A stretch of 64,000 nucleotides of DNA from Candidatus Saccharimonadales bacterium (GTDB lineage Bacteria; Patescibacteriota; Saccharimonadia; Saccharimonadales; JAXHNE01): contig JBFIJL010000001.1 of the NCBI GenBank assembly GCA_041600755.1, forward strand, positions 56,798 through 120,797. The letters run 5' to 3'. Shown one piece after another: positions 223 through 39,802 of this stretch (its first letter is position 1; each line of letters opens with the position of its first letter). A model generated the notes under the pieces. That model did not search any database. It was not told where the DNA came from and was given only the letters and a program-made list of their open reading frames with translations. Made by a program: the position numbers and the translations under genes.

Positions 223-602
223 TGGTGGAGCTGGCGGGCACCGCCCCCGCGTCCGTAAGTGTTTCAAGTAGTCTATCCTACAGGCTTAGATCATTTAATT
301 ACGATTGTTAGATGAAAAATAATCAAAAACTAACAAAAGTTCATCCAAAAGTCTTAGCAATTACTATGGATTCTCGTAACTGAGCAATCTGAAAAATAGC
401 GCTTTGCACAACTATCAGATATCGTCGGCAAAACGGCTTTTAACAATTAAGCAAAAGCTGGTGCGGCTACTGGCATGCGGAACATGCTAGCAACGCGCTG
501 TACAAAAGATGTTGCATCTAGTGATTTTTATCCTATAACGCGGGATTAGCGACCTGCTGATCTACCTGTAAACGAGCTAACGTCGAGCTTAAAGTCAGCC
601 CC
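223..602 (-). ncRNA. ssrA: tmRNA (SsrA), ~380 nt
   Basis: Revcomp 5' end is GGGGCTGACTTTAAGCTCGACG (E. coli starts GGGGCUGAUUCUGGAUUCGACG). The 3' end is ...GCGGGGGCGGTGCCCGCCAGCTCCACCA with a G3:U wobble in the acceptor stem (alanine identity). An internal tag-like ORF ends GCC GCA CCA GCT TTT GCT TAA (…AAPAFA*), stop at 447-449 on the minus strand. Confidence 0.85.
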
Positions 603-33709: not shown

Positions 33710-34303
33710 TTATTCTGTTTTGTCTTTTTTTTGGTCTGTGGGAGGTAGCTGCTTTTGATCGTTCAACTCTAAAGTTTTAGTCAGGACATCCAACACGCTT
33801 CTGGCATGTTCTTTGCTCATGCCGACTCGAGATACAATAATTGGCTGATTGCCAGGTCCGGAGCCCTGCATGAAATTCATGATGACGCCATAGTTGTTCA
33901 CGCTTACGTGCACCATATCTGTGTAAGAAATCTTGAGCTCATCTGGAGACACGATCGCCGTGCCCTTCACAAAAGAATCATTTGTTGACTCGCCGCCAGA
34001 CAGTGAGGTCTTATCAAACTCTGCCAATTCCCAGACTCTAACTGCTTCGTCTTCTTTGATGCTGAAATGACTAATTAGAAGTAGAAGTATGTCTTCGCTA
34101 GGACGTTTTACTCCGAGCTCAATATCGCTTAACTGAGATGGGTCAACTTCAACAGCACCCGAAACTTCAGCGAGAGATTCCTGTAGATTCACACGAAGTT
34201 GTTTCAGGTAACGACCGAGTCGTTTATAAGGATATTGCTCTTGTTGCTTTCCCATTGCACCATAATGGTACGAAAGTGTGAGCCAGGTTGCAAGCAGAAC
34301 CAT
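33710..34303 (-). CDS. Membrane-anchored HTH (XRE-like) domain protein
   Basis: N-terminal hydrophobic segment, then YLKQLRVNLQESLAEVSGAVEVDPSQLSDIELGVKRPSEDILLLLISHF (helix-turn-helix-like). Confidence 0.4.
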   Translation of the reverse strand: MVLLATWLTLSYHYGAMGKQQEQYPYKRLGRYLKQLRVNLQESLAEVSGAVEVDPSQLSDIELGVKRPSEDILLLLISHFSIKEDEAVRVWELAEFDKTSLSGGESTNDSFVKGTAIVSPDELKISYTDMVHVSVNNYGVIMNFMQGSGPGNQPIIVSRVGMSKEHARSVLDVLTKTLELNDQKQLPPTDQKKDKTE

Positions 34304-35823: not shown

Positions 35824-37083
35824 CTAGCTTGGCAATGGAAACCCTTTTGCAAAATCTATCACTTCATTGCGAATAGATTGCAATTTGTCTTGATTCTCGT
35901 AATTTTTTATAGCCTGGTTGATCCATTCAGCAACCAGTACCATTTCCGCTTCTTTCATTCCACGCGTCGTGAGTGCTGGCGTGCCTAGGCGTAGACCACT
36001 CGGATCGAATGGCTTACGCGTATCAAAAGGCACCGTGTTCTTATTTGCAGTAATGCCGACAGCGCCAAGTGCATTCTCTGCCTGCTTGCCAGTAATGCTT
36101 TTATTTTGCAAGTTTATCAGCAGTAGATGATTGTCTGTGCCACCGGTTATCAGCTGGAAATCCTTTTTATTGAGCTCATCTGCCAACACCTGTGCGTTTT
36201 TCACCACCTGTGCTCCATATTGCCTAAACTCATCAGTTGCCGCTTCCTTGAGCGCCACTGCGATCGCTGCGGTCTGATGATTGTGTGGACCGCCCTGAAG
36301 CCCAGGAATTATCGCCCGATCAATCAACGATGGGATGTTCTCTTTGGTTCGCTCCACCTTCTTTAGTGGCGTCGATGGGTTCCCATTACTCATAATCAGT
36401 GCTCCACGTGGGCCTCGAAGAGTTTTATGAGTAGTCGTAGTAATCACATCTGCAATGCCCGCTGGCGAAGGATGTACGCCCGCTACAACTAATCCTGCAA
36501 TGTGCGAAATATCTGCCAAAAACCATGCGCCAACAGAATCAGCAATTTCACGCAGTCGTTGCCAATCAAAAATTCTTGGATAGGCCGTAGCCCCGGCAAT
36601 CAATAAACGTGGCTTATGTTCAAGAGCCAGCGCAGCTATGGCATCATAGTCAAGATACCCATCCTTGCCTGTCTGATAACCAACTGAATTGTAAAGTGTG
36701 CCTGAAAAATTCACTTTCAATCCATGAGTTAAATGTCCGCCAAAATACATATCTAGCCCCATGACTGTGTCACCCGGATCTAACAACGCATAATAGGCTG
36801 CGAGATTCGCAGGAGAACCTGAATAAGCCTGAACGTTCACATGATCGACTCCAAAAAGCTTCTTGGCGCGATCACGTGCAATGTTCTCTACCTGATCCAC
36901 ATACTCACATCCACCGTAGTATCGTGATCCTGGATAACCTTCTGAGTATTTATCTGTAAGTCGAGAGCCAAGTGCCTTCAACACCGCTCCAGACGTATGA
37001 TTTTCACTAGGAATCATTTCAAGACCCTCGGCTTGTCGTGCAGTTTCTTTCGCAATAAGTGTTTCAATCTCTGTATCGTGCAT
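35824..37083 (-). CDS. glyA: Serine hydroxymethyltransferase
   Basis: LEMIPSENHTSGAVLKALGSRLTDKYSEGYPGSRYYGGCEYVD and the PLP-lysine region TTTTHKTLRGPRG. Confidence 0.9.
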   Translation of the reverse strand: MHDTEIETLIAKETARQAEGLEMIPSENHTSGAVLKALGSRLTDKYSEGYPGSRYYGGCEYVDQVENIARDRAKKLFGVDHVNVQAYSGSPANLAAYYALLDPGDTVMGLDMYFGGHLTHGLKVNFSGTLYNSVGYQTGKDGYLDYDAIAALALEHKPRLLIAGATAYPRIFDWQRLREIADSVGAWFLADISHIAGLVVAGVHPSPAGIADVITTTTHKTLRGPRGALIMSNGNPSTPLKKVERTKENIPSLIDRAIIPGLQGGPHNHQTAAIAVALKEAATDEFRQYGAQVVKNAQVLADELNKKDFQLITGGTDNHLLLINLQNKSITGKQAENALGAVGITANKNTVPFDTRKPFDPSGLRLGTPALTTRGMKEAEMVLVAEWINQAIKNYENQDKLQSIRNEVIDFAKGFPLPS

Positions 37084-37208
37084 AAAATCTCCTGTGTTTA
37101 ATAGCCTGAAAATTAAGTGGAAAACTATATCATGAGTCTATTTTAGCACTACCCACAGCACAAGAATCATTATTGATTCTAATATCACATTTGATATAAT
37201 TACAGACT

Positions 37209-38729
37209 ATGATGAACACCAACGAAAAAATAGGCAATCTTATTTACCAACTACGACAAGAGCGCGGTTTAACTCAAGCAGAGTTTGCGCGCAAGATGGG
37301 CACCAGCCAAAGTGCCATAAACCGCATCGAAAAAGGTAGACAAAATCTCAGCCTAGAAACACTTGGACGAATAAGTGACGTATTACAGAAACCAATAATC
37401 ACTATTTCAGGCCAGTCAATAAACTTTCGGGTTGAAGGTGGACACGAGCTTTCAGGCACCATAGAAACAAAAAGCGCAAAGAATAGCGCAGTTGCTTTGC
37501 TGTGCGCAAGCTTACTAAACAAAGGGACGACAAAGCTTATTAACGTTCCTCGCATTGAGGAAGTAAATCGTATAGTTGAAGTGCTTCAGAGTATTGGAGT
37601 GAGCATAAAATGGTTCAACGGAAACTCTCTCGAGATTAAGCCGCCAGAAACACTGGACCTTAGCAACATTGACGCACAGTCGGCACGACGCACCAGAAGC
37701 GTAATCATGCTTGCAGGACCCCTGCTGCACGAATTCAAAGAATTCAAAATACCATATGCCGGTGGATGCAAGCTCGGCAAACGATCTGTTCAGGCCCACC
37801 TATACGCTCTTGAGGACTTTGGGGTTGAAACAGACGTTGTAGTTGGTCACTACAAAATGACTGTCAAAGACCCCTCGGCTGCCGATGTCGTTCTATACGA
37901 AATGGGTGAAACACCGACTGAGAACATCTTGATGGCTGCGGCTCGCGCAACCGGCACATCAACTATCAAAATGGCGTCGTCAAACTATAACATTCAAGAC
38001 CTTTGTTATTTCCTTAAGAAATTAGGCGTGAAGATTCAGGGCATTGGCACATCAAATCTTACTATTACTGGTGTTCCAGAAATCAGAAAGAATATTTCAT
38101 ACCATGTATGTGAGGACCCGCTCGATTCAATGTTCTTCATATCTGCGGCAGTTGCAACTAATTCGCAAATTACCATTACCAACACACCAACAGATTTTCT
38201 TGAAGTTGAGCTTATGAAGCTCGATAAAATGGGACTTGAAATCAAACGAGAGAACACTCACACCAGCCCCAATGGCTGGACCCACCTTGAGGACATAACA
38301 ATCCACAAGCACGATGGAAAATTAAAAGCTCCTGTAGAAAAATTACATCCTTTGCCTTTCCCAGGATTACTCCCAGACAACTTGCCGTTCTTTGTGCCAA
38401 TAGCAGCTGTAGCCAAAGGCCAGACATTGCTGCACGATTGGATGTACGAAAACCGAGCCATATACTTTACTGAACTCAGTCGACTTGGGGCAAACGTGGA
38501 GCTAATCGATGCACACCGAGTTTACGTCAAAGGCGCCACCAAGTTCTCACCGGCCGACATTACATGCCCACCCGCACTTCGTCCTGCTGCAATCCTACTC
38601 ATCGGCATGCTTGCAGCCGACGGTACAAGCAAGCTACGTAATATCTACTCTATTGCGCGCGGTTATGAAAACATAGCTGAACGCCTCAATAGCATCGGTG
38701 CAAAAGTCGAAGTTCTCAACGAACTTTAA
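37209..38729 (+). CDS. murA: UDP-N-acetylglucosamine 1-carboxyvinyltransferase fused to an N-terminal XRE-type HTH domain
   Basis: Residues ~5-70: LIYQLRQERGLTQAEFARKMGTSQSAINRIEKGRQNLSLETL (HTH_XRE). Remainder is EPT-fold MurA (KSAKNSAVALLCASLL...; total 506 aa vs ~420 for MurA alone). Confidence 0.7.
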   Translation: MMNTNEKIGNLIYQLRQERGLTQAEFARKMGTSQSAINRIEKGRQNLSLETLGRISDVLQKPIITISGQSINFRVEGGHELSGTIETKSAKNSAVALLCASLLNKGTTKLINVPRIEEVNRIVEVLQSIGVSIKWFNGNSLEIKPPETLDLSNIDAQSARRTRSVIMLAGPLLHEFKEFKIPYAGGCKLGKRSVQAHLYALEDFGVETDVVVGHYKMTVKDPSAADVVLYEMGETPTENILMAAARATGTSTIKMASSNYNIQDLCYFLKKLGVKIQGIGTSNLTITGVPEIRKNISYHVCEDPLDSMFFISAAVATNSQITITNTPTDFLEVELMKLDKMGLEIKRENTHTSPNGWTHLEDITIHKHDGKLKAPVEKLHPLPFPGLLPDNLPFFVPIAAVAKGQTLLHDWMYENRAIYFTELSRLGANVELIDAHRVYVKGATKFSPADITCPPALRPAAILLIGMLAADGTSKLRNIYSIARGYENIAERLNSIGAKVEVLNEL

Positions 38730-39079: not shown

Positions 39080-39157
39080 TGGGGCGAATGAGGGGAATCG
39101 AACCCCCGACCTTCTGAACCACAACCAGACGCTCTAACCAACTGAGCTACATCCGCC
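39080..39157 (-). tRNA. tRNA-His (anticodon GTG) with genomically encoded G-1
   Basis: Revcomp G-GCGGATGTAGCTCAGTTGGTTAGAGCGTCTGGTTGTGGTTCAGAAGGTCGGGGGTTCGATTCCCCTCATTCGCCCCA; extra 5' G pairs with discriminator C73; anticodon loop TTGTGGT. Confidence 0.85.
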
Positions 39158-39229
39158 AAGATATACGCGCTGAACTCCGCAATTATAGCCTTTTACCCCA
39201 ATAAAATCAATTATACATATACAAAATTA

Positions 39230-39307
39230 TGGTACCCCGGGAGGGACTCGAACCCCCGACCTAATGGTTAGAACCCACTTGCTCTAATCCAGCTGAGCTA
39301 CCGGGGC
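39230..39307 (-). tRNA. tRNA-Arg (anticodon TCT)
   Basis: Revcomp GCCCCGGTAGCTCAGCTGGATTAGAGCAAGTGGGTTCTAACCATTAGGTCGGGGGTTCGAGTCCCTCCCGGGGTACCA; anticodon loop GTTCTAA. Confidence 0.8.
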
Positions 39308-39727: not shown

Positions 39728-39802
39728 TGGTGCGGGTGGAGAGAATCGAACTCTCGTTTCCAGCTTGGAAGGCTAGCATATTAACCACTATAAGACACCC
39801 GC
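39728..39802 (-). tRNA. tRNA-Gly (anticodon TCC)
   Basis: Revcomp GCGGGTGTCTTATAGTGGTTAATATGCTAGCCTTCCAAGCTGGAAACGAGAGTTCGATTCTCTCCACCCGCACCA; anticodon loop CTTCCAA. Confidence 0.75.

Follow-up and report, generated by a model that had tools for sequence, protein, structure and literature searches.

What is a DNA-binding domain doing on MurA, the enzyme of the first committed step of peptidoglycan synthesis? The question is raised by a gene, which we call HTH-murA, lying at 37209-38729 in a stretch of 64,000 nucleotides (the window) from contig JBFIJL010000001.1 of a Candidatus Saccharimonadales bacterium. A preliminary description of this DNA had reported an open reading frame (ORF) in which a helix-turn-helix (HTH) domain is fused to a full-length enolpyruvyl transferase, and the ORF list, Pfam and NCBIfam all agree with that. 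Comparison of the protein and its upstream DNA across related genomes suggests that HTH-MurA is probably bifunctional, a MurA enzyme that also acts as an autorepressor, in other words a trigger enzyme.

The two parts of the 506-residue protein are clearly recognized. HTH_3 matches residues 12-63 (E 4e-18, 65.5 bits with a cut-off of 23), HTH_31 also matches the N-terminus (45.3 bits, cut-off 27), and EPSP_synthase covers residues 75-493 (E 3e-50). The HTH peptide quoted in the preliminary description, QAEFARKMGTSQSAINRIEKG, is located at residues 23-43. An AlphaFold2 model (predicted local distance difference test (pLDDT) 88, predicted template modelling score 0.82) comprises a four-helix HTH, a linker and a complete MurA fold. 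Confidence falls in the linker, to a pLDDT of about 51 at residues 61-70 and below 50 at residues 64-68, and outside the linker disorder is confined to the Cys loop (residues 187-190). Sequence and structure searches of the PDB returned no chain that spans both the HTH and the MurA parts.

The HTH-MurA fusion is genuine and under strong selection. Conservation in relatives, a check proposed with the first description, is complete among the closest of them: 120 of 120 database relatives (64-100% identity, about 505 residues) carry both Pfam domains. At least 573 loci that encode a relative came up in a scan in which each species was represented by one genome, and the best 80 of them were retrieved; in each of these 80 the alignment runs from residue 1-8 to the end of the protein, and all the translations include the HTH. 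The fusions go under two names in public records, 'UDP-N-acetylglucosamine 1-carboxyvinyltransferase' and 'helix-turn-helix domain-containing protein'.

The C-terminal 435 residues are predicted to be a catalytically competent MurA. They exceed the cut-off of the NCBIfam MurA subfamily model NF006873 (349.3 bits against 297) and fall narrowly below that of the strict murA equivalog TIGR01072 (324.8 against 392.7 bits), and this is therefore a divergent MurA. Solved MurA chains in the PDB align to residues 72-505 with an identity of only about 26-31%. In a Foldseek search of the PDB the top 43 matches are all MurA entries, with template modelling scores on the target of 0.87-0.93, and NikO and AroA rank lower. 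The model has the two-lobed inside-out alpha/beta-barrel of the enolpyruvyl transferases, and AroA and NikO resemble it less than MurA does. Alignment with the MurA sequence of E. coli, which agrees with the PDB alignments, equates K91, N92, R163, C187, R192, D390, R416 and R458 with E. coli K22, N23, R91, C115, R120, D305, R331 and R371, respectively. The invariant R484, within the sequence RGYE, is the equivalent of E. coli R397. The catalytic and substrate-binding residues are invariant in 44 aligned sequences, and the eight-residue signature K22/N23/R91/C115/R120/D305/R331/R371 is identical in 91 of the 92 active fusions. No second murA was found within the 64-kb window. The exception among the 92 is locus L020 (Saccharimonadales, gene start 4782), which has AGGD for AGGC at the catalytic loop. 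The same Cys-to-Asp change confers natural fosfomycin resistance on MurA in mycobacteria and chlamydiae.

The N-terminal domain belongs to the XRE/Cro-C1 type, as judged by HTH_3 and HTH_31 matches over the gathering thresholds together with a four-helix fold, the helices being predicted at residues 4-18, 23-30, 34-41 and 49-59. The predicted recognition helix (residues 34-41) lies inside an invariant TSQSA(I/V)xR(I/M)E stretch, and around this third helix T32, Q34, S35, R39, E41, G43 and N46 are invariant in the 44 sequences. The HTH is conserved to about the same degree as the enzyme, with a mean identity of 0.49-0.54 for the HTH and 0.56-0.60 for the enzyme domain when Saccharibacteria, other Patescibacteria and Actinomycetota are compared with one another. 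The nearest relatives of known structure are the small HTH proteins HipB, SinR and PezA, with HipB(Lp) (PDB 8ezt) matching at E 6e-7.

If this domain binds DNA, there should be a site for it, and a strong candidate lies directly upstream of the gene. When the DNA upstream of the gene is aligned across the 80 related loci, an 18-bp palindrome with the common form TAT-xy-CA-N4-TG-y'x'-ATA emerges. Saccharibacteria have the variant TATATCA..TGATATA, which in the window is AATATCAcattTGATATA; Actinomycetota have TATCTCA..TGAGATA, kept as TATCTCAtatcTGAGATA at a G+C content (GC) of 60-76%; and one group of other Patescibacteria has TATAGCA..TGCTATA. For 67 of 81 loci, the distance from the end of the best site to the start codon is 8-13 nt, and several of the loci outside this range look like cases of mis-assigned start codons. 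A strict palindrome is found within 150 nt upstream in 40 of the 81, and elsewhere in the same loci only once in a total of 974,750 nt. The window site, the candidate operator O1, is the only strong match to a position-weight matrix in 64 kb, scoring 19.6 bits where the next best scores 12.9. Next to it is a possible auxiliary site O2. The two are perfect palindromes that share the core ATCA-N4-TGAT and lie 18 bp apart, directly upstream of the gene, and this core occurs three times in the window, two of these being O1 and O2. O2-like upstream half-sites are present in loci L002, L022, L025 and L028, and are not general. The centers of the half-sites are 11 bp apart, placing both on one face of the DNA as for a dimeric HTH, and we infer that the HTH binds the palindrome as a dimer.

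The Actinomycetota copies keep the palindrome at the same distance despite unrelated neighborhoods. The fusion of Janibacter is flanked by thiolase/FadB, DXS and aconitase, and that of Arthrobacter by an ATP-binding cassette transporter and GCS2. Because gene and site are found together in such unrelated neighborhoods, the pair constitutes a self-contained module. The sequence of the site also varies with that of the protein. The half-site TATAGCA occurs only with TTQS or STQS helices and never with TSQS, the co-variation that co-evolution of protein and DNA predicts.

The palindrome has a constant relation to promoter elements. In Saccharibacteria the left half-site is directly preceded by a TTGAnt -35 element, and the right one continues into an extended -10 element (TGnTATAat). 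In Actinomycetota the right half-site continues into TAcgGT, a -10 element of the TAnnGT type. The distance from the -10 element to the start codon is 6-8 nt in both groups. The predicted promoter in the window matches at 10 of 12 positions and has the TG, making it the best in the region, with 8 nt between the -10 element and the ATG. A promoter scan of the window is by itself not significant (5 found, 4.6 expected), and the promoter call leans on it only together with the geometry observed across species. The spacer between -35 and -10 is the classic position for repression by occlusion, and a short distance between -10 and start codon implies a leaderless transcript. The palindrome thus apparently occupies the -35/-10 spacer of the gene's own promoter, which appears to be leaderless, and would itself be untranscribed because just 6-8 nt separate the -10 element from the start codon. 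The gene had been credited with one ribosome binding site. In fact the 10 nt before the ATG (attacagact) contain no Shine-Dalgarno sequence, and the geometry points to a leaderless mRNA.

These observations suggest the following mode of action. The N-terminal 63 residues, a HipB/Cro-like HTH, would bind as a dimer to the 18-bp palindrome. Bound in the -35/-10 spacer, the HTH would block RNA polymerase at the protein's own promoter, and in this way the enzyme would set its own level by negative autoregulation. Repression is thus the presumed effect, and not activation. As in known trigger enzymes, the catalytic and DNA-binding domains are contained in one polypeptide and both are under selection. 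On comparative grounds, a putative operator lies at the promoter of the cognate pathway, both in the 67 loci noted above and in each of the five loci examined for the catalytically dead relatives discussed below. It is also possible, and we suggest it tentatively, that DNA binding would vary with the conformation or bound ligand of the MurA domain, responding to UDP-N-acetylglucosamine (UDP-GlcNAc), phosphoenolpyruvate (PEP) or the tightly bound feedback ligand UDP-N-acetylmuramic acid (UDP-MurNAc). This would couple murA transcription to the status of cell-wall precursors. Tight ligand states of MurA are on record in the PDB entry descriptions, where UDP-MurNAc and the PEP-Cys adduct appear in many solved structures.

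The strongest indirect evidence for a regulatory function of the HTH that is tied to murA comes from the context of pseudoenzymes within the fused family. An exhaustive search of cluster representatives identified deep fused members with 34-41% identity. All 12 of those examined have lost the GGC-x-G-x-R loop and the equivalent of R91, and R371 is also gone in all but one (P0139). Their ten-residue HTH signature is nonetheless identical to that of the active proteins, in 12 out of 12. They score 160-235 bits where the MurA family cut-off is 297, and their MurA domain has diverged to an identity of 0.33-0.35, whereas the HTH is still at about 0.5. In the five loci examined the pseudoenzyme gene is in every case divergent from a Mur-ligase operon that includes an unfused murA (and murB where the contig reaches it), ddl or Mur-ligase genes lie downstream of it, and the palindrome sits in the short divergent intergenic region. 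The unfused neighboring MurA passes the MurA cut-off and shares only 25-29% identity with the fused family, which rules out recent duplication as its source. With a separate MurA available, the fused copy appears to have been kept as a regulator only. Thus the pseudoenzymes appear to be dedicated regulators inside mur gene clusters.

Several further observations concern these loci and their relatives. The unfused MurA proteins beside the pseudoenzymes at L082 (8598-9914, minus strand), L084 (4275-5588, minus strand) and L085 (8619-9971, minus strand) have Gly where E. coli MurA has R331 and Gln where it has R371, and seem to represent an unusual lineage of MurA. In L082 (11467-13056, plus strand) and L088 (7225-8916, plus strand) the D-Ala-D-Ala ligase encoded downstream of the pseudoenzyme is fused to Peptidase_C39_2 (529-563 residues), another unusual fusion of a cell-wall enzyme in these Patescibacteria. 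Decay in the opposite direction is seen in P0127 (529 residues), where the catalytic signature is kept and the HTH is degenerate, with ITLEE in place of TSQSA. P0122, P0124, P0126, P0130 and P0131 (429-462 residues), among the close relatives at 44-57% identity, are without the HTH altogether. Of these only P0122 falls among the fused Patescibacteria proteins in a neighbor-joining tree.

A number of points weigh against a bifunctional enzyme and autorepressor. The AlphaFold2 model is of a monomer, so that dimerization is assumed, and E. coli MurA is monomeric. Ligand control of DNA binding is pure inference, drawn by analogy. The palindrome pattern was defined after seeing the data and the exact enrichment depends on the definition, although the enrichment is far too large for this to matter. 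The co-variation of helix and half-site may reflect a single evolutionary event. Several Saccharibacteria loci, for example L004, L007 and L019, have a degenerate left half-site. In Saccharibacteria the right half-site overlaps the -10 or extended -10 element (TGnTATAAT), and some of the conservation there is therefore promoter conservation. Finally, scans with the position-weight matrix and the strict pattern over the 64-kb window and about 975 kb flanking the active fusions gave no further convincing site. No second target was thus found in the window, and for the active fusions there is no support for a cell-wall regulon that reaches further. The preliminary description had suggested that the protein could autoregulate cell-wall genes. 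The palindrome conserved across phyla is consistent with this for the protein's own promoter, and the part that concerns other genes is so far unsupported for the active fusions.

The alternative that survives best is a plain homeostatic autorepressor that senses no ligand, in which the HTH would bind the operator as soon as the protein is plentiful and the role of the MurA part would be limited to catalysis and perhaps dimerization. It departs from the main reading solely in the ligand control, the final and least secure element of that reading. All the evidence on operator and promoter is equally compatible with it. However, a 70-residue HTH alone would suffice for simple autoregulation, and the pseudoenzymes keep a MurA fold of 430 residues that has no catalytic purpose, which sensing or regulated assembly explains more easily. 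We therefore regard the plain autorepressor as unlikely. That the catalytically dead members still have the entire MurA fold is compatible with sensing, and suggestive only. Returning to the bifunctional enzyme and autorepressor, an extended version can be envisaged in which the MurA fold would act as a sensor of peptidoglycan precursors, through its occupancy by UDP-GlcNAc, UDP-MurNAc or PEP and its open and closed states, and would pass this signal directly to murA transcription, the fusion would provide the main transcriptional control of precursor synthesis across Patescibacteria and be the source of the dead MurA-like repressors of mur operons, and the gene would have moved horizontally, together with its operator, between Saccharibacteria and the Actinomycetota that are their hosts. 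We offer this larger picture with some reserve, as rather less than an even prospect.

It is much less probable that the HTH does not bind DNA at all, being instead a vestige or a module for protein-protein contacts, with the palindrome belonging to the architecture of the promoter or serving a different regulator. An XRE-like HTH that makes protein contacts does exist, in RodZ, where the HTH binds MreB, and part of the palindrome does coincide with the -10 element in Saccharibacteria. Yet the palindrome follows the gene into Actinomycetota of 70% GC and into unrelated neighborhoods, and in its strict form it is essentially absent from the 975 kb of flanks, which contain hundreds of other promoters. 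The half-site varies along with the residues of the helix, and a vestige would not keep helix 3 invariant across phyla. Nor does the protein resemble RodZ. The HTH is matched in Pfam by the DNA-binding HTH_3 and HTH_31, no RodZ-type model is among the nine Pfam matches of the protein, residues 72-506 are entirely MurA, and there is no membrane segment.

In principle the palindrome could be transcribed as part of a 5' leader and fold into an RNA hairpin, an element of translation or stability unrelated to the HTH. A stem of 7 bp with a 4-nt loop is possible, and inner stem positions co-vary between lineages. Nevertheless, the hairpin is predicted to be only weakly stable (-3.1 to -5.6 kcal/mol), the outer positions are conserved in sequence and not merely in pairing, and an Rfam search gave no matching family at the HTH-murA promoter. 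Moreover the palindrome is probably not transcribed, because it lies between or within the -35 and -10 elements, after which just 6-8 nt remain before the start codon. We consider an RNA element at this position highly improbable. Least credible of all, to the point of being negligible, is an artefact in which a small HTH gene and murA have been merged by sequencing error or are separated by an internal translation start, since more than 200 independent sequences, drawn from many assemblies and in part from RefSeq isolates, have the same frame of about 500-520 codons, and since no ATG, GTG or TTG codon lies between residues 30 and 97, so that a separate MurA cannot start at the domain junction and a separate small HTH gene, the possibility that had been raised for checking, is ruled out.

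How widely is this arrangement found? A lineage-specific fusion had been offered as an alternative, and the distribution is anything but narrow, the fusion being widespread in Patescibacteria and present in many Actinomycetota as well. The hosts among the best 80 loci are Saccharibacteria, other Patescibacteria (Parcubacteria, Paceibacterota, Doudnabacteria and Taylorbacteria) and Actinomycetota, and an additional search adds Liptonbacteria and Colwellbacteria as further Patescibacteria that carry relatives. The occurrence in Actinomycetota is unexpected. The carriers, of 60-76% GC, include cultured Nocardioides, Arthrobacter, Janibacter, Knoellia, Brachybacterium, Ornithinimicrobium and Kineococcus. 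In a rough neighbor-joining tree of the MurA domain, calculated without support values, all 39 Actinomycetota fusions form one clade inside the Saccharibacteria fusions, beside the group L022-L030. Cultured Saccharibacteria live on Actinomycetota. Taken with that association, the nesting of the clade hints at transfer of the gene and its operator between epibiont and host phylum.

Trigger enzymes of the BirA type are the closest match for the way in which HTH-MurA probably works. BirA is both the biotin protein ligase and the repressor of the bio operon, and its ligand state drives dimerization and DNA binding. In BirA, PutA and NadR, each a trigger enzyme with its own DNA-binding domain, a palindromic operator overlaps the promoter of pathway genes, as the candidate operator does here. 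None of these families came up in the searches with HTH-MurA, and there is no sequence relationship. HTH-MurA combines the enolpyruvyl transferase fold with an XRE/Cro HTH, whereas BirA has a winged helix and PutA a ribbon-helix-helix, and the target of HTH-MurA is apparently its own gene.

The best sequence relatives of the HTH are XRE antitoxins of the HipB/Y4mF type (TIGR03070, E 6e-14, but at 51.7 bits below the family cut-off of 71.65). The operator of E. coli HipB is TATCC-N8-GGATA, and this 18-bp layout is that of the TATCT-N8-AGATA upstream of HTH-murA genes in Actinomycetota. Unlike HipB, the domain is here fused to an enzyme and has no adjacent toxin gene. With the score under the cut-off, and neighbors (glyA, murB, small ORFs and tRNAs) of which none is toxin-like, we rejected a toxin-antitoxin system. 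A similar layout is found in PRK08154, the NCBIfam 'anaerobic benzoate catabolism transcriptional regulator', in which an XRE HTH lies N-terminal to shikimate kinase. The enzyme is however unrelated, and the match to HTH-MurA is limited to the HTH (26.6 bits, cut-off 204).

A further parallel is provided by the MocR/GabR regulators, in which, as described in PMC4944035, an HTH is fused to a whole aminotransferase-like fold that serves as a module for effector binding or oligomerization. The pseudoenzyme branch, of the P0128 type, is an analogous end state. MocR domains are generally non-catalytic, whereas nearly all of the active HTH-MurA fusions have the full catalytic signature, and unlike MocR the family has both bifunctional and regulator-only stages extant.

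Canonical stand-alone MurA shares its fold and catalytic residues with HTH-MurA, and no MurA with a DNA-binding domain was found among solved structures in the PDB or in the literature. MurA is a recognized control point of the pathway, and its known control is post-translational, by phosphorylated CwlM as activator in mycobacteria and by UDP-MurNAc feedback in E. coli, with differently regulated MurA paralogues in Gram-positive bacteria (PMC4946905). A literature search gave no description of an HTH-MurA fusion or of its operator sequences, and murA is absent from the main text of a paper on Saccharibacteria genetics (PMC10633639). If MurA does bind its own promoter, direct transcriptional self-control would be added to this post-translational regulation, a form of cell-wall control that has not been described before. 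It would apply to Patescibacteria, a huge and poorly understood phylum with very few recognizable regulators. One family would comprise stand-alone enzyme, bifunctional enzyme-repressor and pseudoenzyme regulator, a rare record of a transcription factor born from an enzyme. The Actinomycetota genes, through their apparent nesting among those of Saccharibacteria, are relevant to gene flow between epibionts and hosts, and the presence of the same protein and operator in ordinary culturable strains of Arthrobacter, Nocardioides and Janibacter makes these ideas readily testable.

The features of the locus are collected in Table 1.

Table 1. Coordinates of the HTH-murA gene, its domains and its upstream elements, numbered within the window.
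Feature	Position	Strand	Basis or remark
glyA / HTH-murA intergenic region	37084-37208		divergent genes
Possible auxiliary site O2, perfect palindrome AGAATCAttatTGATTCT	37163-37180		centered 18 bp upstream of O1, overlaps -35
Predicted promoter	37173-37200	+	-35 TTGATT 37173-78, 16-nt spacer, TG 37192-93, -10 TATAAT 37195-37200
Candidate operator O1, 18-bp palindrome AATATCAcattTGATATA	37181-37198		inverted repeat; ends 10 nt before ATG
HTH-murA gene	37209-38729	+	single ORF, 506 codons + stop, ATG start
XRE/Cro-C1-type HTH domain, residues 4-63	37218-37397	+	Pfam HTH_3, AlphaFold2 model
Inter-domain linker, ~10 residues (residues 60-71)	37386-37421	+	low pLDDT; MurA homology begins at residue 72
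Complete MurA (UDP-GlcNAc enolpyruvyl transferase) domain, residues 72-503	37422-38717	+	NF006873, PDB alignment, Foldseek
Codon TGC, Cys187, equivalent of catalytic, fosfomycin-targeted E. coli Cys115	37767-37769	+	alignments with PDB MurA (GGC motif) and E. coli MurA

The gene order around HTH-murA is conserved in Saccharibacteria, and runs HTH-DUF3467 gene, murB, divergent glyA and HTH-murA, with murB 1.8 kb upstream of HTH-murA in the window. The glyA gene, encoding serine hydroxymethyltransferase (35824-37083, minus strand), is the divergent neighbor of HTH-murA in all 27 Saccharibacteria loci that have enough sequence. The gap between glyA and HTH-murA falls to about 55-115 nt in the group L022-L030, and because the intergenic gaps are so short the putative operator might also affect glyA. 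In Actinomycetota we looked for synteny with the housekeeping atp operon and did not see it, the neighbors being unrelated.

The HTH-DUF3467 gene (33710-34303, minus strand) encodes a second and unrelated XRE-type HTH protein of 196 residues, with HTH_31/HTH_3 and DUF3467 matches. It is divergent from murB, an arrangement of the two genes that is shared by 22 Saccharibacteria loci. The window also contains a tmRNA gene (223-602, minus strand) and seven tRNA genes, all of which look ordinary. Three of the seven follow closely after HTH-murA, at 39083-39307 and 39731-39802 (minus strand).

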